64,000 nt of DNA from the NCBI GenBank assembly GCA_034440235.1, contig JAWXBR010000017.1, forward strand, positions 12,566-76,565. Direction: 5' to 3'. Of this stretch, positions 20,997 through 35,124 are shown in pieces. This DNA comes from a bacterium (GTDB lineage: Bacteria; Bacteroidota; Ignavibacteria; Kapaibacteriales; Kapaibacteriaceae). The position numbers were made by a program, and so were the translations under genes. The notes under the pieces are model-generated. The model did no database searches. It was not told the DNA's origin and was given only the letters and a program-made list of their open reading frames with translations. Position 1 is the stretch's first letter, and every line of letters begins with the position of its first letter.

Positions 20997-21071
20997 CAGC
21001 GTCGGCGAAAAACAACACTAGCGAGTAAAGCGGCGGAACACTTTGTTATATAACTGCCTCACCGGAGCCGA

Positions 21072-23507
21072 ATGAACAATCTTGTCATCGTAGAGTCACC
21101 ATCAAAAGCCAAGACCATCCAAAAGTTTCTTGGGGGTGATTTTATCGTGACGTCGTGCATGGGACATATCCGAGATCTTCCGGGTAACGACAAGGCCATC
21201 GACGTAGAAAACAATTTCACGCCAGTGTATGAAGTGTCCGATGACAAGAAGAAGCTTGTAAACGACCTCAAGAAAATGGCGAAGCAGGCAGACGTCGTCT
21301 GGCTCGCGTCCGACGAGGACCGTGAGGGTGAAGCCATTGCATGGCATCTCTATGAGGCTCTCGCGTTAACCCCAGAAAAAACGCGACGCATTGTCTTTCA
21401 CGAAATCACGAAGGCTGCAATTCTTAAGGCGGTACAGCAGCCGCGTCAGATCGATCTGAACCTCGTTGATGCACAACAGGCACGTCGGGTACTCGATAGG
21501 CTTGTGGGTTACGGACTCTCCCCTGTTCTCTGGCGCAAGGTGCAGAAGAACCTTTCGGCCGGACGTGTTCAGTCTGTTGCCGTCCGCCTCGTCGTCGAAC
21601 GCGAACGCGAGATCCAGGAGTTCAACGCAACGAGTCAGTTTCGCATTAAGGCCTTCTTTGATGTCGACGGACGTACTCTTATCGCAGAACTTCCACGCCG
21701 CTTCGATACAGAAGAAGAGGCGCGTGCATTTCTGCAAGCGTGTGTTGGTGCGTCGTTTCACATCTCGAACCTCGAAACCAAGCCAGGAAAGAAATCGCCG
21801 GCAGCCCCCTTCACAACATCTACTCTGCAGCAGGAAGCAAGTCGTAAGCTTGGGTACTCGCTGTCGCGCACGATGAAGCTTGCGCAGGATTTGTACGAGC
21901 AGGGACATATCTCGTACATGCGTACCGATTCGGTGAACCTGTCAGAAACTGCCATTGAAGGGGCTAAGGCAGAGGTCTTGTCGGCGTACGGAACCGAGTA
22001 CAGCAACCCAAAGAACTACACAACAAAGGTTGCAAGCGCGCAAGAGGCGCACGAAGCAATACGTCCGACCGAATTCGGACTGCGTGTTGCGGGCGAAAGC
22101 GACAATCATAAAAAGCTTTACGATCTAATCTGGAAGCGTACTATTGCATCGCAAATGGCAGATGCTAAACTCGAGCGCACAACAGCAACAATTGCCGTAT
22201 CGACTGTCCCCGACTCGCTCGTGGCAACAGGCGAGGTGCTAATTTTCGACGGCTTCCTGAAGGTGTACATGGAGTCGAGCGACGAGGAATCGACCCAGGA
22301 CGATGACGATACATCGAAGATGTTGCCACCGCTGGAGATGAATCAGACGCTGAATTTTCTGGCGATGAATGCAAACGAACGCTTTTCTCGTCCGCCCGCC
22401 CGATATACCGAAGCGAGTCTCGTTCGCAAGCTCGAGGAGCTCGGCATCGGACGTCCCTCTACCTACGCTCCAACTATCTCGACCATTCAAGCCCGCAAGT
22501 ATGTCGTAAAAGAAGACCGTGATGGCAAGCAACGCGAAATACGTTCGTTGCGGCTCGAAGACTTCAACATTACACGTGCTGTAGAGGTCGAGAACACAGG
22601 CGCAGAGCGCTCGAAGCTGTTCCCTACCGATGTTGGCAGTGTTGTAACAGACTTCCTGAAGATGCACTTCGAAGGCATCATGGATTACGGCTTTACGGCA
22701 AGTGTAGAAAAGCAATTCGACGAAATAGCGCATGGTCAGCTCAAATGGACAGAAATGATCCGCGAGTTCTACGTGCCGTTCGATGCCGAAGTAAAAAAGA
22801 CAACAGAAACAGCAGAACGTCAGAGCGGCGAACGTCAGATTGGCGTCGATCCGGTAAGTGGTAAAAATGTTTATGTACGCCTTGCACGTTACGGACCCGT
22901 AGTGCAAATCGGTGAAGCCGACGATCCGGATAAGCGTTTAAAGGGGCTCTCGGGGCCTATGTCTATTGCCACCGTTACAATGGACGAAGTGATGGAGCTC
23001 TTCAAGTTCCCTCGCATGATTGGAACGTTCGAAGACTTCAACATGGATGTGAAGCTCGGACGATTTGGTCCGTACATCGAGCACAACAAAGCCTTCTACT
23101 CCATCCCCAAGGAAGACGACCCATACACCATCGAGGGTGAGCGTGGAGTCGAAGTCATCATTGCACGACGTCAGAACATTCTCGACCGAACCATCAAGAC
23201 CTTCGACGAAGACCCAACGGTAAAAATCATCAAGGGCAGATGGGGTCCGTTCATCTCTTACGGCAAACAGAACGTCCGCATCCCCAAGGGCACCGAAGCT
23301 GCAACCCTAACGCTCGAAGAATGTTTGCAGCTCGCAGCACAACAGGCACCCGTCAAGAAGTCGCGCAAAAAAGCAACCGAAGACGAAGACCCAGATGCAG
23401 TAAAAGCTCCAGCCTCGAAAAAGGCCGCTGCGAAGAAAAAACCTGCAGCAAAAAAGAAGGCCGCTGCAAAGAAAAAGACTGTAGCAAAGAAGAAACCGGC
23501 ATCATGA
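21072..23507 (+). CDS. topA: DNA topoisomerase I with Lys/Ala-rich tail
   Basis: IVESPSKAKTI, DEDREGE, AGRVQS, SYMRTDS, GRPSTY. Confidence 0.98.
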   Translation: MNNLVIVESPSKAKTIQKFLGGDFIVTSCMGHIRDLPGNDKAIDVENNFTPVYEVSDDKKKLVNDLKKMAKQADVVWLASDEDREGEAIAWHLYEALALTPEKTRRIVFHEITKAAILKAVQQPRQIDLNLVDAQQARRVLDRLVGYGLSPVLWRKVQKNLSAGRVQSVAVRLVVEREREIQEFNATSQFRIKAFFDVDGRTLIAELPRRFDTEEEARAFLQACVGASFHISNLETKPGKKSPAAPFTTSTLQQEASRKLGYSLSRTMKLAQDLYEQGHISYMRTDSVNLSETAIEGAKAEVLSAYGTEYSNPKNYTTKVASAQEAHEAIRPTEFGLRVAGESDNHKKLYDLIWKRTIASQMADAKLERTTATIAVSTVPDSLVATGEVLIFDGFLKVYMESSDEESTQDDDDTSKMLPPLEMNQTLNFLAMNANERFSRPPARYTEASLVRKLEELGIGRPSTYAPTISTIQARKYVVKEDRDGKQREIRSLRLEDFNITRAVEVENTGAERSKLFPTDVGSVVTDFLKMHFEGIMDYGFTASVEKQFDEIAHGQLKWTEMIREFYVPFDAEVKKTTETAERQSGERQIGVDPVSGKNVYVRLARYGPVVQIGEADDPDKRLKGLSGPMSIATVTMDEVMELFKFPRMIGTFEDFNMDVKLGRFGPYIEHNKAFYSIPKEDDPYTIEGERGVEVIIARRQNILDRTIKTFDEDPTVKIIKGRWGPFISYGKQNVRIPKGTEAATLTLEECLQLAAQQAPVKKSRKKATEDEDPDAVKAPASKKAAAKKKPAAKKKAAAKKKTVAKKKPAS

Positions 23508-29087: not shown

Positions 29088-30194
29088 CTACGAATTCCGA
29101 TCTGTGTCATACTCCGCAAGCAAGAACTCTCTTGCGTGCGCCATGTCTGGTGGAAGTTCGGATTCGAACTCGAGGCGCTTGCCTGTTGTAGGGTGTGTGA
29201 AGCCCAGCGTCTTTGCGTGTAGCGCCTGACGTGGCATCATGTCGAGCAGACGTTGTGCGGTGCGGCGGTAGAGGTGGTGAATGGCAGTTACGCCCTCATC
29301 ACGTCCGTTGTAATCGGGGTCGCCGACGACAGAATGTTTTTGTGCCGCCATGTGTACACGTATCTGATGGGTGCGTCCCGTTCTCAACTTGCATTGAATG
29401 AGCGATGCACATGAGTAACGTTCTAACACCGTGATTTCTGTCGCTGCGTATTTGCCGCCCCTTGGCAGGACAGCGCGGAGCTTGCGATCGCGCGGACTGC
29501 GCCCCACATCACCTTCGAGAAGCATTGTATCATTTTTTACTACTCCCCATACCAGTGCTTCGTACAGACGTGATACCGTGCGTTCGAAGAACTGGTTTGA
29601 GAGATGCAGCGATGCTTCGTAGGTCTTGCCGACGACCATGAGGCCTGAGGTGTCTTTGTCGAGGCGGTGGACGATGCCCGGACGTACAGCGTCGGTGCCG
29701 AGCACTGCGGAGTGGTCGATTGGGAATCCTTCTTCGACGTCGATTTCTTCGCGCTCTTCATCTTCGTTTACAAGGTCGATGGCTTCGCGCACACCCATGT
29801 GCCACAGCACAGCATTCACGAGCGTACCGGTTCGGTTGCCGATGCCTGGGTGCACAGTAAGTCCCGCAGGTTTGTTTACAACAAGCAGCTGATCGTCTTC
29901 ATACACCACATCGAGTGGAATGTCTTGTGGGATAAGCTGGATAGGGGGCTGCTTCATCACGACCAGGCGTATGGTGTCGCCCGGACGAACCTTGTAATTA
30001 GAGCGAGAGGCGATACCGTTCACCGTTACCGTACCGTCGTCGATAGCCCTTTGCACACGCGTTCGCGTGGCATACATAACCGAGTGGGTAAGAAAGGCGT
30101 CGAGGCGTTCCGGCTTTTGTCCGCGAGTAATCACGAACTCATGCGTGTGTTCGATCTTGCCCGGTCCCGATGGGAGGTGTTCCGGGTTGTTCAT
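29088..30194 (-). CDS. rluD: RluA/RluD family pseudouridine synthase
   Basis: S4 domain, NKPAGL, HRLDKDTSG, TGRTHQIR. Confidence 0.93.
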   Translation of the reverse strand: MNNPEHLPSGPGKIEHTHEFVITRGQKPERLDAFLTHSVMYATRTRVQRAIDDGTVTVNGIASRSNYKVRPGDTIRLVVMKQPPIQLIPQDIPLDVVYEDDQLLVVNKPAGLTVHPGIGNRTGTLVNAVLWHMGVREAIDLVNEDEEREEIDVEEGFPIDHSAVLGTDAVRPGIVHRLDKDTSGLMVVGKTYEASLHLSNQFFERTVSRLYEALVWGVVKNDTMLLEGDVGRSPRDRKLRAVLPRGGKYAATEITVLERYSCASLIQCKLRTGRTHQIRVHMAAQKHSVVGDPDYNGRDEGVTAIHHLYRRTAQRLLDMMPRQALHAKTLGFTHPTTGKRLEFESELPPDMAHAREFLLAEYDTDRNS

Positions 30195-30726
30195 TCTGTT
30201 TTGAAGGGAGTTTGTGGCTTACAAAGAGTAAGGTCACAACACCCACACTGACGCAGGAATCTGCAACGTTGAAGACAGGCCAGTGTGTGTATCGATCGCC
30301 GAACCATGAGATGTCAGGAATATCAACTTGTATAAAATCTACCACCTTGCCGAAGAACAACGGGTCCTCGTTAAAGATGACACCGTAAAAAGCTCTGTCA
30401 ATTAGATTGCCAACCGCACCGGCAAGTATTAAGCCGACTGCGAGCTGAACAGACCAGTGTGCCGGACGTAGTCGTAGCAGATACCAAACAAGAAATGCCG
30501 CTACCACAATCGTCACCAGCGTTAGTACAATCTTACCCGCACCGAACTCAATGCCAAATGCCATTCCTGGGTTTTCGACGTACGTGAGTCGTACGAATTC
30601 GCCTACGAGCGGATGACTCTCGCCTAGGAACATGTTGTTCTTAACCCAGAGCTTGGTGATCTGGTCGAGCACAACAAGTACACATGCCATCACGACAAAT
30701 CGATATTGAGCGAATGCGAGGTTCAA
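30139..30726 (-). CDS. lspA: signal peptidase II
   Basis: DQITK, NPGMAFG, GAVGNLIDR, VVDF, FNVAD. Confidence 0.95.
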   Translation of the reverse strand: MNLAFAQYRFVVMACVLVVLDQITKLWVKNNMFLGESHPLVGEFVRLTYVENPGMAFGIEFGAGKIVLTLVTIVVAAFLVWYLLRLRPAHWSVQLAVGLILAGAVGNLIDRAFYGVIFNEDPLFFGKVVDFIQVDIPDISWFGDRYTHWPVFNVADSCVSVGVVTLLFVSHKLPSKQNEQPGTPPIGTGQDRTHA

Positions 30727-30739
30727 AATTTCTGACGCC

Positions 30740-31408
30740 TCACTTCACTGCGTCGGTATTCTTAGCCACGATTCTATCGATACCATCGACTGGACACTTC
30801 TGATGAATCTTGTACGAAGCGGAGAGCGTGGTTACTGGTACAGCGAGCAGACGTTCCTTCGCAATGAGGATACCACACATGCGACAGATGCCGTATGTCT
30901 TCTCAGTAATGCGTTGAAGCGCTTCTTCTAGCTTGCGGATATAATCTTGAATGCGCTGAATCTGAGCGTACGTCTTTTCTTTTTCGATTGCTTCTGAACC
31001 TTGTTCTGCCATGTGCATCGAATAGATCGCCGTTTCTTCTGTCGATTCGCTGCTCGTTAAATCGTCGAGACGTTCCTTAAGCATACGCAGTTCTTCGAAC
31101 GCGTCTTCTTTTGAACGCTCGATATTTGCTTTGAAGGTCGCAAGATCTTTGTCGGAATACTTGAGTCCTGGCTTAGGGGCCACTGGAACCATTGGTGGTT
31201 TCTTAGGCACAAGCGGGGCTGCGTTGGGCGTAAAAACAAAAGCTGCCCCGACAGCTTGGTTAACTGTCGGAGCAGCGGGTAGTGGGCCCGAAGACTTCAG
31301 CGACTTTTTCGTCACATTCCTACTCAATGCTGGCTTTGACTGGGCAATTCGGATATTCTCCGAATCATTTTTGGACGCTGTCGCTGAGGACACAGCCTTA
31401 GTCGACAC
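30740..31408 (-). CDS. TraR/DksA family protein; frame stays open upstream to 31514, probably fused to the H1-like ORF by a -1 shift
   Basis: Coiled coil with HMAEQGS tip; ALQRI..KTYGICRMCG..IAKERLLAVP. Confidence 0.88.
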   Translation of the reverse strand: MSTKAVSSATASKNDSENIRIAQSKPALSRNVTKKSLKSSGPLPAAPTVNQAVGAAFVFTPNAAPLVPKKPPMVPVAPKPGLKYSDKDLATFKANIERSKEDAFEELRMLKERLDDLTSSESTEETAIYSMHMAEQGSEAIEKEKTYAQIQRIQDYIRKLEEALQRITEKTYGICRMCGILIAKERLLAVPVTTLSASYKIHQKCPVDGIDRIVAKNTDAVK

Positions 31409-31470
31409 AGGAGCCGCTATCTTCGAGGAAGTCTTCTTTGGCGCCGGAACTGCCTTAGACGTTGGGGCCG

Positions 31471-31710
31471 TTAGGCTGCTTTTTTTTTTGCAGCTGTCTT
31501 CTTTGCTGCCTTCTTAGCAGGCTTAGCCTTCTTAGCTGCCTTAGCCTTCTTAGCAGGCTTTGCCTTCTTTGCAGCCTTCTTAGCTGGTGCTGCCTTCTTA
31601 GCTGTAGCCTTCTTAGCTGGTGCTGCCTTCTTAGCCGCCTTCTTGGCTGGCTTCTTGGCTGCCTTCTTAGCTGGCTTAGCCTTTTTCGCTGCCTTTTTCG
31701 CTGCTGCCAT
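31471..31710 (-). CDS. histone H1-like Lys/Ala/Pro-rich protein
   Basis: 79 aa of AKKAA/PAKKA repeats starting at ATG 31710. Confidence 0.8.
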   Translation of the reverse strand: MAAAKKAAKKAKPAKKAAKKPAKKAAKKAAPAKKATAKKAAPAKKAAKKAKPAKKAKAAKKAKPAKKAAKKTAAKKKAA

Positions 31711-31767
31711 AAACTAATCTCCGAACAGTTGAACATGAAAACGCGTACGCCACTTTGGCGTAAGCAT

Positions 31768-34700
31768 CTACGATGCGAATTGCGCACCTGCGCGCTCGAT
31801 CCGCACGCTGACATTTCGCCCGTTAATCTCGAGAAGCGTCCCAAAGGGACCTTCCCCCCGCTCGAGCGTATCGGCCAGCGTTTCCATTACAATCGAATTC
31901 CGCATGACATGCATTGCTTCCGTCACTTCCTCATCTGCTGCGAACGCAATATCTATACGGTCTGTCACCTCAAATCCAGAGTCCTTGCGGAACTTCTGAA
32001 CCTTACTAACGAACTCGCGTGCCAAGCCTTCCTGAATCAGCACACTGTCCAACTCCGTGTCAAGCGCAACCGTCACGCCATTATCCGAAGCAACCAACCA
32101 ACCTTCGATGTCCTGATTTACAATTTCCACGTCTTCGCGGTCAATCGAGACCGACTCACCGCCGACATGTACTTCCAGAACTAGAGATTGTTCGAGTTTG
32201 CGGACCTGTTCGTTATCCAACGATTTGATCGCCTGCGAAACCAGCTGTGTTTTGTCTCCATACTTCTTCCCGATGATCTTGAAGTTCGGTTTCGTTGAGC
32301 GTTGAACAATGTTCGTATCGTCCGATACATATTCAATGGCCTTTACGTTAATCTCTTCAAGAATGATGTCCTCGACCGTTTGAATTTGTCTACGCATCTG
32401 TGGACCATCGACCGGGAGAAGAATTCGACGCAGCGGTTGTCGCGTTTTGATCTTCGATTTCTCTCTCAAAGAACGTGCAAGGAAAACAATTGTCTGCGCT
32501 TGCTTCATCCGATACTCTAAGTCACTGTTGATAAGTGACGTATCGACCCCGCGCAATATACTACAATGAATGCTCAAATGTTCGTTGTGCAAACGTGCTC
32601 GTAGGAAAATCTGCTCGGCTAAAAACGGAGCGACGGGAGCGATGAGTTGCGCAGTGGTAACAATCACTTCGTGAAGGGTCTGATACGCTGCACGTTTGTC
32701 TTCGTCCATCTCCCCTTTCCAAAACCGTCGACGATTTCTTCGCACGTACCAATTCGAAACATCTTCGATTACAAACTCTTGAACAATCCTGCATGCCTTC
32801 GTTATGTCGTACGCATCCATGCTTTCGGTGTACGATTGAATGACGGTATTTAGTCGCGATAAAATCCAGTGATCGATTTCCGGACGTTCTGCGATTGGCA
32901 CGATGGGTTCTTCGCCAGTGAATCCATCGATACCAGCATACAGCGAAAAGAAACCATACGTGTTTACATAAGAACGGAATAAGTCTGCTAAGACAGTCCT
33001 GGCAACGTCGTCCTCATTGAAGTTGCGCGGCTTCCACGCTGGCGCGGCGGCCATCAAGTACCAACGGATTGCATCGGCGCCGTATTTGTCGAACAACACA
33101 AACGGGTCGAGGATGTTGCCTCTTGACTTGGACATCTTCTGTCCGTTTTTGTCGAGCAACATGTCATTCACAACTACATGTCTATACGCTGGCTTATCAA
33201 ACAGCGCCGTCGATATGTTGTGCATGGTATAAAACCATCCGCGCGTCTGATCGATTCCCTCTGCAATAAAATCGGCTGGAAATGACTTGTTAAACAATTC
33301 TACATTCTCGAATGGGTAATGGAATTGTGCAAAAGGCATCGTACCCGAATCGAACCATGCGTCGATGACTTCTTTTGTGCGACGATATTCGACGCCGTTT
33401 TTGACGAAGACAACGCGGTCGACGAACGGACGATGCAAATCGATGTCGATGGACAAGTTTTCCACAGGAACCTTCGAGCCGTCGTCCTGAACATAGAGTC
33501 CTTTCTTCAACTCATCAATCGATCCGACTGCGAACATGTCACTTCCATCTTCGCTCACCCAAATTGGTAATGGCGTTCCCCAATATCTATCGCGTGATAG
33601 TGACCATTCTTTTACTTCTTCGAGCCAATTACCAAAACGTCCAACACCAATTTCTTCAGGATGCCACGCAATGGTTTTATTCAACGCAACGAGTTGTTCT
33701 TTGTACTCAGGCGATTTTATAAACCACGAATCACGCGCGTAATAGATGACCGGATTGTCGGTTCGCCAGCAATGCGGATAGCTGTGCATGTAATCGAACG
33801 CAGCCTTGTATGCCTTGCCACCAATTTTTAATTCCTTGACGATGTCACGGTCCGCACCCTCTTCAAAAACGAATTCTTCGCCACCCTCTTTCGAAGGGTT
33901 AGGATACCTAAATGTCTTTACCGCACGACCCGCATAGTTCTTAATAACATCGGTGAACTTTCCTGTCGGCGTTACAGGCTGCACTACGGGCAGATTGAAT
34001 TGCTTTGCAATCTCGAAGTCATCCTGTCCGAAGGCAGGCGCGATGTGCACCACGCCAGTACCATCAGCCGTAGTCACAAACGATCCTGGTAACACATGCA
34101 GCACATTTGGATGTGCAGCAGTGTCGAGCACAACGTCTGTAAAGATCTGCTCGTATGTAGAGTTCACAATCTCGCTTCCGAGGAAACGCTCGAGCTCTTC
34201 CGTTTCGCCGTCGAGGATTTCAAGACGGGACTCAGCGAGCACGACGAGTTCTTCGACCTGTGCTGCACCAACAGTTCGTGTGTTACGCACGAGTACATAT
34301 GGAATGTCCGGACCCACTGCGAGTGCAACGTTTCCGAATAACGTCCAAGGCGTCGTTGTCCATACAAGAATAAAAGCCCCTTTGGCTTCGGCCCCTTGAC
34401 TAGTAGCATCCGCTGCTTGAGCAGTACCAATTGACTTTTTGTCGATGATGTTTTGAAGCGAAGCGATTGGCGATGACGTTAGGCGAAGCTTTAGGTAGAC
34501 ATTCGGGTCACGGACGTCTTTGTAGTTCAGCGAAAGTTCGTGCGACGACAACGGTGTGCCGAGGGTTGGCGATTGCGGAACAACCTTGAAGCCTTTGTAG
34601 ATGAGGTTCTTGTCGAAGAACTGCTTGAGTGCCCACCACACCGACTCGACATAATCGTTCGAACATGTGATGTACGGATTATCGAGATCGAGCCAATAAC

Positions 34701-35124
34701 CCATGCGTCGCGTAAGTGTGCGCCACCCCGTGTCGTGTGCGATGTTGTAATCGACGAGGGCTTTGCATGCAGCGTTGAATACATCAACGCCTAGGACTTC
34801 GATCTGTGCTTTATCGGTAATGCCAAGTTGCTTTTCTACAGCAAGCTCAACGGGGAGTCCGTGTGTATCCCAACCCGCCTTACGCGGCACATAAAACCCA
34901 CGCATGGTTTTATACCGACACATCGTGTCTTTAATGGTACGAGCAAACGCGTGGTGAATGCCAGGACTTCCATTAACCGTCGGAGGTCCTTCATTAAACG
35001 CAAACAGCTCGGCACCCTCGCGCTCCTTTAACGAAGCTGCAAAAACACCGTTGCTCTCCCAGTACTCAAGGATGTCTTGTTCGTGGCGGGGATAAGAGAA
35101 ATCGTCGGGAAGCGGTTCAAACAT
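31768..35124 (-). CDS. ileS: isoleucine--tRNA ligase (type 2)
   Basis: EGPP..NG.PGIHH, GWDTHGLP, WTTTPWT, EGIDQTRGWF, KMSKS. Confidence 0.98.
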   Translation of the reverse strand: MFEPLPDDFSYPRHEQDILEYWESNGVFAASLKEREGAELFAFNEGPPTVNGSPGIHHAFARTIKDTMCRYKTMRGFYVPRKAGWDTHGLPVELAVEKQLGITDKAQIEVLGVDVFNAACKALVDYNIAHDTGWRTLTRRMGYWLDLDNPYITCSNDYVESVWWALKQFFDKNLIYKGFKVVPQSPTLGTPLSSHELSLNYKDVRDPNVYLKLRLTSSPIASLQNIIDKKSIGTAQAADATSQGAEAKGAFILVWTTTPWTLFGNVALAVGPDIPYVLVRNTRTVGAAQVEELVVLAESRLEILDGETEELERFLGSEIVNSTYEQIFTDVVLDTAAHPNVLHVLPGSFVTTADGTGVVHIAPAFGQDDFEIAKQFNLPVVQPVTPTGKFTDVIKNYAGRAVKTFRYPNPSKEGGEEFVFEEGADRDIVKELKIGGKAYKAAFDYMHSYPHCWRTDNPVIYYARDSWFIKSPEYKEQLVALNKTIAWHPEEIGVGRFGNWLEEVKEWSLSRDRYWGTPLPIWVSEDGSDMFAVGSIDELKKGLYVQDDGSKVPVENLSIDIDLHRPFVDRVVFVKNGVEYRRTKEVIDAWFDSGTMPFAQFHYPFENVELFNKSFPADFIAEGIDQTRGWFYTMHNISTALFDKPAYRHVVVNDMLLDKNGQKMSKSRGNILDPFVLFDKYGADAIRWYLMAAAPAWKPRNFNEDDVARTVLADLFRSYVNTYGFFSLYAGIDGFTGEEPIVPIAERPEIDHWILSRLNTVIQSYTESMDAYDITKACRIVQEFVIEDVSNWYVRRNRRRFWKGEMDEDKRAAYQTLHEVIVTTAQLIAPVAPFLAEQIFLRARLHNEHLSIHCSILRGVDTSLINSDLEYRMKQAQTIVFLARSLREKSKIKTRQPLRRILLPVDGPQMRRQIQTVEDIILEEINVKAIEYVSDDTNIVQRSTKPNFKIIGKKYGDKTQLVSQAIKSLDNEQVRKLEQSLVLEVHVGGESVSIDREDVEIVNQDIEGWLVASDNGVTVALDTELDSVLIQEGLAREFVSKVQKFRKDSGFEVTDRIDIAFAADEEVTEAMHVMRNSIVMETLADTLERGEGPFGTLLEINGRNVSVRIERAGAQFAS

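Follow-up and report, generated by a model that had tools for sequence, protein, structure and literature searches.

DdbA of Streptomyces, the closest protein so far described, couples a DNA-binding tail resembling histone H1 (hereafter H1-like) with a DksA-like domain; the tail binds and condenses DNA, and orthologues are reported only from streptomycetes (PMC3643593). The present analysis concerns a locus of comparable layout, situated between ileS and lspA in a stretch of 64,000 nucleotides (nt; the whole stretch is called the window) from a bacterium of the Kapaibacteriaceae (Bacteroidota; Ignavibacteria; Kapaibacteriales; GenBank assembly GCA_034440235.1, contig JAWXBR010000017.1, positions 12,566 to 76,565 of the forward strand), in which an H1-like open reading frame (ORF) and a DksA/TraR-like domain occupy different reading frames. 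Comparative sequence analysis makes it probable, and we hold this with good confidence, that the two genes are joined by programmed -1 recoding at a conserved run of ten A's (A10). Like DdbA, the predicted product of 323 amino acids (aa) has a Lys/Ala-rich basic repeat tail followed by a DksA/TraR-like domain, and relatives outside the Kapabacteria family encode the same architecture as one ORF. DdbA differs in being a single ORF with four zinc-finger cysteines and both tip aspartates (PMC3643593), whereas the Kapabacteria locus has two frames joined at A10, keeps the first CxxC only, and carries a terminator-like hairpin between its parts. Both tails are of low complexity, and the likeness is one of architecture. 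SCO2075 presumably also adjoins ileS and lsp.

With respect to the recoding itself, the nearest described cases are the two-ORF dnaX genes, the dnaX gene of Thermus thermophilus and the OrfA-OrfAB pairs of the insertion sequences IS3 and IS630, in which a short 0-frame product stops past a poly-A run and the longer product needs a shift (PMC3711429, PMC5009743). The run length of 10 matches that of nine two-ORF dnaX genes cited in PMC3711429, and in the dnaX candidates of PMC5009743 the long form likewise comes from the shift, with the 0-frame stop directly past the site, as here. Unlike these systems, the Kapabacteria pair combines a nucleoid-type tail with an RNA-polymerase-factor-like domain instead of a replicase or transposase, and has a hairpin within the shifted frame. 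Escherichia coli copA resembles it as one cellular gene giving both a free small N-terminal domain, CopA(Z), and a full-length protein, and differs in that the shift is required for the short form and takes place at a site other than a homopolymer. Leader-peptide attenuators share a terminator-like hairpin whose formation could depend on the translating ribosome; the difference is that here the decision would follow the reading frame past the recoding site, not stalling at regulatory codons.

The H1-like ORF lies on the minus strand (31471..31710, stop included) and encodes 79 aa, MAAAKKAAKK...TAAKKKAA. A GGAG Shine-Dalgarno-like motif (31719..31722) starts at -12 relative to its ATG. An earlier note, made from the letters of the window and a list of its ORFs, had described the ORF as an AKK repeat ending GCA AAA AAA AAA GCA GCC TAA with the A10 run at 31480..31489; both the sequence and the ORF list bear this out, the 0-frame TAA (31471..31473) standing 6 nt past the run. 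The -1 frame, also on the minus strand, is open from stop to stop over 257 codons plus its own stop (30740..31513), and its translation (...CKKKSSLTAPTSKAVPAPKKTSSKIAAPVSTK... / ...CKKKSSLTAPTSK...) runs through A10 into the DksA-like domain, with the stop at 30740-30742. In this respect the note was right, and its one slip was to open the frame at 31514, since the preceding TAA occupies 31516-31514 and the true first position is 31513. It was also correct that the first ATG, GTG or TTG of this frame is the GTG at 31408, and its estimate of a fusion of about 323 aa holds, because one A added within the run gives 77 + 246 = 323 aa.

Under standard decoding, the locus would yield the 79-aa Lys/Ala-rich H1-like protein, which stops 6 nt past A10. 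In a fraction of expression events, of which we infer both the occurrence and the efficiency, decoding would pass into the -1 frame at the run, either through RNA polymerase adding one A (transcriptional slippage, giving an A11 mRNA) or through the ribosome slipping on A_AAA_AAA. The shifted product of 323 aa would then consist of the H1-like tail, a disordered linker of about 100 residues and the DksA/TraR-like domain. The note's proposal of candidate programmed recoding gains support from the family, throughout which the run, the nearby stop, the -1 phase and an open linker in phase are kept.

A first sample comprised 41 genomes (own, genus, family and order), and the DksA frame was found in 40 of them. 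Within the family it was present in 23 of the 24 genomes besides the window's own, being missing from one that is 82% complete. All 24 family loci had an AKK-repeat ORF ending ...AAKKKx, with A10 in 23 and A11 in one, and at 22 of these the ORF was a MAAAKK... frame of 67-121 aa, while a contig end truncates L007 and L009. Further, named records came from a scan of GTDB species genomes, namely metagenome-assembled genomes labelled Candidatus Kapaibacterium, Kapabacteria, 'Ignavibacteria' and 'Chlorobiota'. After 22 identical duplicates had been dropped, 88 loci remained, 46 with the split architecture and 42 without it. Two assignments were made by hand: L009, which is cut at the contig end and had been mislabelled by the script, was placed in the split set because its DksA frame is -1, and L085, with an A8 run beside masked N's and outside the family, was removed from it.

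The presence of an A10 run is in itself not beyond chance, because the 3.04-Mb genome contains two A/T runs of at least 10 letters against 3.8 expected for independent letters; what does exceed chance, by comparison with related genomes, is its conservation. Among the runs of at least 9 letters in the genome, no other stands between two long open frames that belong to real genes. The run has ten A's at 44 of the 46 split loci and eleven at the other two, where a G>A change turned the next codon into ATG and left the frame relation as it was. The codon that holds the first A is GCA at 45 loci and GGA at one, and the next three codons are AAA AAA AAA at every locus, so that all 46 loci keep the form xxA AAA AAA AAA. 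At the other positions of these ORFs, lysine is encoded by AAG 1199 times and by AAA 115 times (AAG 91%; AAA 8.8% of 1314), and GCA makes up 40% of the alanine codons. A motif prone to slipping is thus kept at the nucleotide level against the local codon preference. The 0-frame stop follows the run within 0-9 nt at all 46 loci, although the sequence around it takes at least 10 different forms. At every locus the DksA frame is -1 relative to the 0 frame and opens upstream of the run, never past it (by no more than 36 nt in 35 of the 46). The comparison of orthologous ileS-lspA loci that the note had called for therefore finds A-run, 0-frame stop and -1 phase retained in 46 of 46.

If the shifted frame is translated from the run, the region between the run and the domain should be open in that frame, and this is what the loci suggest. 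For the analysis, the -1 frame was divided into section 1, from the run to an RNVT motif (43-57 codons), section 2, from RNVT to a YSD motif, and the domain. In the window, the linker from A10 to the NVT codon occupies 31316..31479 (-), is rich in S, T, K, A and P, and lacks a conserved start codon. Over the 46 loci, stops in section 1 number 102 and 147 in the two alternative frames and none in the DksA frame, and its ten different lengths are all in phase. A nucleotide alignment made blind to codons (A5) has 22 distinct gap intervals from the run to the V codon of RNVT, every one a multiple of three (3-36 nt), as are the six intervals from the V codon to the end of the hairpin described below. 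With this genome as the training set, log-odds of codon usage favour the DksA frame at 45 of 46 loci, a measure that is partly redundant with the stop count. Most of the 24 tabulated loci have no ATG, GTG or TTG in the first ~50 codons past the run, and the GTG at 31408, from which the note had considered that DksA might start independently, is not conserved among relatives.

The ratio of nonsynonymous to synonymous substitution rates (dN/dS, omega) was estimated on 15 pairs picked from the tree for section 1 and on 18 pairs for finer segments. From the V codon onward, omega is 0.59 as far as the hairpin, 0.55 in the hairpin, 0.16 from the hairpin to YSD and 0.03 in the domain, and the last two values indicate that the downstream part is expressed. 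Synonymous divergence (dS) is 0.16-0.23 in section 1 and 0.14-0.23 up to the 3' end of the hairpin, and then 0.94 and 1.35. Selection on the linker is accordingly visible on stops, phase and nucleotides, with an amino-acid sequence that is barely constrained, and we read it as a disordered protein linker whose mRNA may also have a role at the RNA level. In A5 columns 146-217 (window ~31380-31310), the blocks GCGTCGAA..AGTTCGGCAA and AGCAGCAAGTAGGAAcGTGACGA are near-invariant from genus to genus, even at third codon positions and at a rare AGG codon; in these blocks, CGU..C is paired with G.ACG by RNAalifold, and covariation is absent.

Further along the shifted frame lies a conserved RNA hairpin of 15 bp with a loop of 5 (31242..31276, -), which encodes AAPTVNQAVGAA in the -1 frame and is immediately followed on its 3' side by the T-rich tract TTTTGTTTTT (31232..31241, -). 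The fold of 31500-31230 has z = -4.8, and a consensus scan resolves it to the 15-bp stem at 31276-31242 with that tract behind it; the stem alone has -28.4 kcal/mol and z = -5.9. Hairpins are found at all 46 split loci, with stems of 11-19 pairs and energies of -23.8 to -34.5 kcal/mol in 46-nt windows, 170-212 nt past the run and 53-109 nt ahead of the domain (352 nt in two loci with long inserts). When the sequences were centred on the hairpin, RNAalifold returned 11 consensus pairs, nine of them with compensatory double changes. In the alignment, 97.6% of the hairpin cells are paired, against 85.4% for column shuffles (0 of 500 reach the observed value) and 25-53% for slid partners. Among the split loci there are 44 G.U cells against 9 A.C cells, which argues that the hairpin is selected in the sense-strand RNA. 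The first 8 nt past the core stem hold at least five T's at 41 of the 46 loci and at least four at all of them. No comparable hairpin was found at the 42 loci outside the clade, where the best windows have -5 to -25 kcal/mol and share neither place nor tail. Even with a relaxed threshold, the one match in Rfam was to a miRNA on the opposite strand and is put down to chance.

A G+C-rich stem-loop with a directly adjoining U tract has the anatomy of an intrinsic (Rho-independent) terminator, and the element would qualify as one by that description; since hairpin-plus-T9 terminators are present elsewhere in this genome, intrinsic termination is plausible in this organism. Read in the -1 frame, the hairpin gives the palindromic peptide AAPxV...GAA. 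At 17 of the 46 loci there is no ATG, GTG or TTG between the hairpin and the domain, which implies that the domain is translated by ribosomes coming through the hairpin, and the residues of this interval vary as ordinary M/L/Q and I/V positions, not in a start-like manner. These features suggest a way in which recoding and transcript length might be coupled. Once the ribosome was released at the H1 stop, the transcript would terminate at the hairpin and leave a short H1-only mRNA, whereas a ribosome continuing in the -1 frame would melt the hairpin, so that transcription and translation would proceed into the DksA domain and lspA. That the hairpin terminates H1-only transcripts and is melted by the ribosome in the -1 frame is a tentative proposal, to which we give somewhat less than even weight. 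More doubtful still is the wider reading of the locus as a frame-gated attenuator, in which slippage by RNA polymerase (or a ribosomal shift) at A10 would decide if the trailing ribosome remains on the message, and one promoter might supply abundant short H1-only transcripts and a set fraction of long H1-DksA-lspA transcripts.

The distribution of the split architecture bears on its age. Of the 42 non-split loci, 35 consist of one ORF with an ATG start and a K-rich tail of at least 100 residues in frame with the DksA domain; these tails contain 13-32% K and are rich in S, T, A and P. L099 was counted among the 35 despite a +1 frame change inside its APKKIEAPKAK repeats. The other seven comprise L027, whose extension is of 30 aa only, L071, outside the family, with a K/A-rich tail of ~350 aa in frame with the DksA domain and without an ATG, L078 at a contig edge, and L080, L085, L088 and L100 with masked N's. 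The frame change of L099 and the missing ATG of L071 could reflect assembly errors in repeats, unusual starts or further recoding. A domain tree from a quick search (88 rows, 146 columns) puts the split loci together on one side of a single branch, which requires one change (support 86 by the Shimodaira-Hasegawa-like approximate likelihood ratio test, SH-aLRT); none of 500 label shuffles was as low as one change. The split clade is nested among the one-ORF loci, and the fusion is therefore ancestral, the split having arisen once. The note had allowed that relatives might all prove to have one uninterrupted ORF; that arrangement is found at 35 of the 42 loci outside the clade, and the 46 loci within it are split. 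Two one-ORF relatives carry the Pfam domain HC2 (PF07382, precomputed) together with zf-dskA_traR.

Several observations weigh against a programmed shift, or against one of its proposed steps. The 46 loci share one origin, so that a count of 46 out of 46 measures retention and not 46 independent events; the retention is nevertheless meaningful, because synonymous sites in the domain are near saturation even in close pairs (dS 1.35-1.42). Pooled omega for the DksA frame of section 1 is 0.83 (0.66-1.09), the other frames giving 0.75 and 1.01, and the finer estimates for the two halves of this section are 0.73 and 0.89; purifying selection at the protein level was thus not found just past the run, omega being the same across frames. 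From the run through the hairpin, all codon positions are about equally constrained (d ~0.2, with which the identity profiles agree), and taken alone the constraint pattern of the linker would fit a non-coding RNA element equally well. The V column of RNVT, with GTG at 31 loci, ATG at 8 and GCG at 7, offers a start-type codon in 39 of 46. No strong stimulatory structure was found next to the run, where RNAalifold over 132 nt yields no consensus fold. The uniform direction of the shift speaks against the slippage route, as a single conserved direction predicts ribosomal frameshifting rather than slippage (PMC3711429), although a single origin would give the same. With regard to terminator gating, pairing of an antiterminator with covariation was not seen by eye in alignment A5, and the step is proposed from the anatomy of the hairpin.

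Close to the run, a 4-bp hairpin can be drawn 8-9 nt past it (A5 columns 46-60), and it is weak, with 81.7% of cells paired and some double changes. It reads AGGG-UAAC-UCCU in most loci and CGGG...CCCG in one lineage, its first pair being AU in 31, CG in 5 and GC in 2, and in the window itself the hairpin is out of register. A second small helix past the run (A5 columns 66-76) was rejected, just 69% of its cells being paired. An antiterminator formed by a conserved AGCAGC block and the 5' arm of the terminator-like hairpin was also dropped, since in the alignment, inspected by eye, the block stays constant where the arm changes.

The low constraint on the linker peptide speaks chiefly for a rival explanation, that of two separate cistrons without recoding. 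The H1-like ORF would end at its stop, and the DksA-like protein, of ~170 aa, would start at the GTG/ATG of RNVT (GTG at 31313..31315, -, in the window) or at another internal codon; the spacer would be an untranslated, structured RNA with an attenuator hairpin. Beyond the start-type codons of the V column, a purine-rich AGGAA/GGGAAG precedes that column, upstream of it the frames cannot be told apart by omega (~0.8) and divergence is uniformly low, as is typical of an RNA element, and omega falls to 0.59 just past it; public gene callers, too, place starts in this region (proteins of 141-236 aa). Such a start leaves unexplained why A10 is retained in 46 of 46 against a 91% preference for AAG, why stops are lacking in exactly the DksA frame (0 vs 102 and 147), why the 22 gap intervals upstream of RNVT are all multiples of three, and why the -1 frame always opens ahead of the run. 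The column itself holds GCG in seven loci. In a calibration on this genome, 1219 putative starts had a Shine-Dalgarno-like motif in 21% of cases and 1211 internal ATG controls in 6.5%; the motif starts peak at -12 to -8, where the GGAG of the H1-like ORF falls (-12), whereas the AGGA ahead of the GTG begins at -6, off that peak. A start 45 nt ahead of a hairpin of -24 to -34 kcal/mol would also give a ribosome little time to protect the transcript. On balance, we regard two independent cistrons as improbable, and an internal start at RNVT may exist in addition to recoding, as a further route to the domain.

Heritable phase variation would place the shift in the DNA: the A10 tract would change length in replication, producing sub-populations with A11 (fused, ON) or A10 (split). 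Homopolymer tracts of such length are mutable in replication, according to PMC3711429, and the unitigs of sequencing runs X2 and X3 break near the A10 run. An in-frame run length, on the other hand, occurs in none of the 46 assemblies, and the Logan contigs of four DNA sequencing runs show no indel row at 31480-31489, with one contig bridging the run as A10, as far as contigs, which drop rare variants, can tell. In that check, X5 gave no coverage of the A-run and X2 and X3 had fewer than 31 letters on one side of it; the bridging contig came from X4 (record 17, 31405-31717, 0 gaps), a sequencing run other than the likely source. Phase variation is accordingly very improbable. The note's main alternative, an assembly error in the homopolymer that split one ORF, is hardly credible at all, and neither is the related idea of an inactivating frameshift that left a DksA pseudogene. 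Some platforms do make errors at homopolymers, yet 46 assemblies, independent of one another and drawn from many studies, agree on the A-run and its phase, the X4 contig bridges A10 without indels, the 0-frame stop is conserved directly past the run in varied contexts, and a domain with an omega of 0.03 at saturated dS is not decaying.

As to how a programmed shift at A10 would take place, transcriptional slippage is put somewhat ahead of ribosomal frameshifting, because all ten A's are conserved while a ribosomal tandem shift needs only seven; among the conserved A's are the last letter of the Ala/Gly codon ahead of the lysines and those of the third Lys codon. Runs of more than seven A's support programmed transcriptional realignment, to which the two-ORF dnaX genes with ten A's have been assigned (PMC3711429), and A9 is slippery for E. 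coli RNA polymerase (PMC4666387). In favour of ribosomal frameshifting, A_AAA_AAA stands in the right phase, and the uniform direction of the shift and the weak 4-bp hairpin past the run count on the same side.

The domain (G of GLKY to the last codon, 30743..31168, -) is placed by sequence matches in the DksA/TraR superfamily. Pfam zf-dskA_traR (PF01258) matches residues 206-231 of the -1 frame (30821-30898) with 25.9 bits against a cut-off of 24.9, and the NCBIfam models remain below theirs (DksA_like 45.9 vs 105; TIGR02420 40.2 vs 115.5; yteA family 75.8 vs 134.4). Sequence matches in the PDB include 6ptg (9e-12) and 1tjl, E. coli DksA (3e-5), and also 2kq9 and 4ijj. By these profiles, the domain qualifies as a member of the superfamily and not as a DksA equivalog. 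The zinc finger CxxC-x17-CxxC is not complete, with two of the four cysteines present: the first CxxC is invariant (C99 and C102, alignment A3), and E. coli DksA 128-137 aligns to ...avpittlsas, where C135 faces S, while C138, one residue on, faces Y. The HMMER alignment to 1tjl begins at residue 89, and its ungapped extrapolation sets the invariant H56 and E59 (YSMHMAEQG) opposite D71 and D74, so that the domain is probably without the two coiled-coil tip aspartates. A role as an RNA polymerase secondary-channel factor is suggested by family membership only. No Pfam or NCBIfam family matched the 79-aa ORF, for which 'H1-like' denotes a compositional resemblance, the AKK repeats.

Of the small stand-alone ORFs in the genome, only the 79-aa one is K/A-rich. 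The genome scan returned two other K/A-rich stretches, one within an open frame of 266 aa on contig C58 and the other the tail of topoisomerase I (window 21054-23504, +; Toprim, Topoisom_bac and C-terminal repeats), which ends ...KKAAAKKKPAAKKKAAAKKKTVAKKKPAS. The second A/T run of at least 10 letters lies on contig C67 (1954-1963), in frame (KKSAKKKSLAPK), in the linker of a long ORF that, read in translation, resembles a LigD-type DNA ligase. An A9 run on contig C10 (L111:3061-3069) stands in frame within an 819-aa ORF for an Eco57I-type restriction-modification methylase, and both other frames stop directly past it, a pattern that would be expected for a phase-variable or slippage-truncated enzyme. 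The dnaX gene of this genome is a single frame of 579 aa, and no A-run of at least 6 was found in the 3.7 kb scanned, so that it supplies no in-house precedent. Among the protein matches, P0090 (250 aa, 70% identity) came from a eukaryotic transcriptome assembly ('eukprot', TRINITY contig); it is probably bacterial contamination and, if genuine, would be an RNA-derived sequence of a relative.

Upstream of the pair lies ileS (31768..35124, -; 1118-aa ORF), and lspA (30139..30726, -; Peptidase_A8, 1.7e-41) starts 14 nt past the stop of the DksA frame. Close relatives, whose coding regions otherwise show 80-90% identity, agree at 97-100% over 31729-31909 (-), an interval that takes in the last ~140 nt of ileS, a spacer of 57 nt and the opening codons of the H1-like ORF. 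A small hairpin past the ileS stop and the GGAG at -12 belong to this interval, which probably holds a promoter or leader of the H1/DksA unit.

Recoding at slippery runs is classical, and what would be new here is the H1-like/DksA gene pair and the terminator within the shifted frame. At the level of listings and abstracts, no report of a frameshifted or recoded dksA or H1-like gene was found, and the word 'DksA' is absent from the accessible text of PMC3711429 and PMC5009743, whose supplementary cluster tables might list one. An H1 tail with a DksA domain, an architecture described as specific to Streptomyces (DdbA), is widespread in Kapabacteria and their relatives. The split also explains an annotation problem, in that public gene calls for the locus start inconsistently and the resulting proteins bear the names hypothetical protein, DnaK suppressor and TraR/DksA zinc-finger protein.

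To our knowledge, conserved programmed recoding in cellular, non-mobile bacterial genes is limited to a handful of cases (prfB, dnaX, copA and few others). The terminator-like hairpin in the shifted frame suggests a simple coupling of a recoding event to transcript length. Were a factor of the secondary-channel type to alter slippage or termination by RNA polymerase, its own synthesis would be self-limiting; the idea that the DksA factor lowers slippage is weakened by E. coli DksA, which, unlike GreA/B, has no effect on slippage at A9 (PMC4666387). If such feedback were true, the dose of a transcription factor would be read out from the error behaviour of the very enzyme to which it is bound. 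If the recoding is true, it would add to those few cases a nucleoid-protein/DksA-like pair that an entire family of uncultured bacteria of the Bacteroidota group has retained (8 genera in the first sample; 46 species-level genomes).

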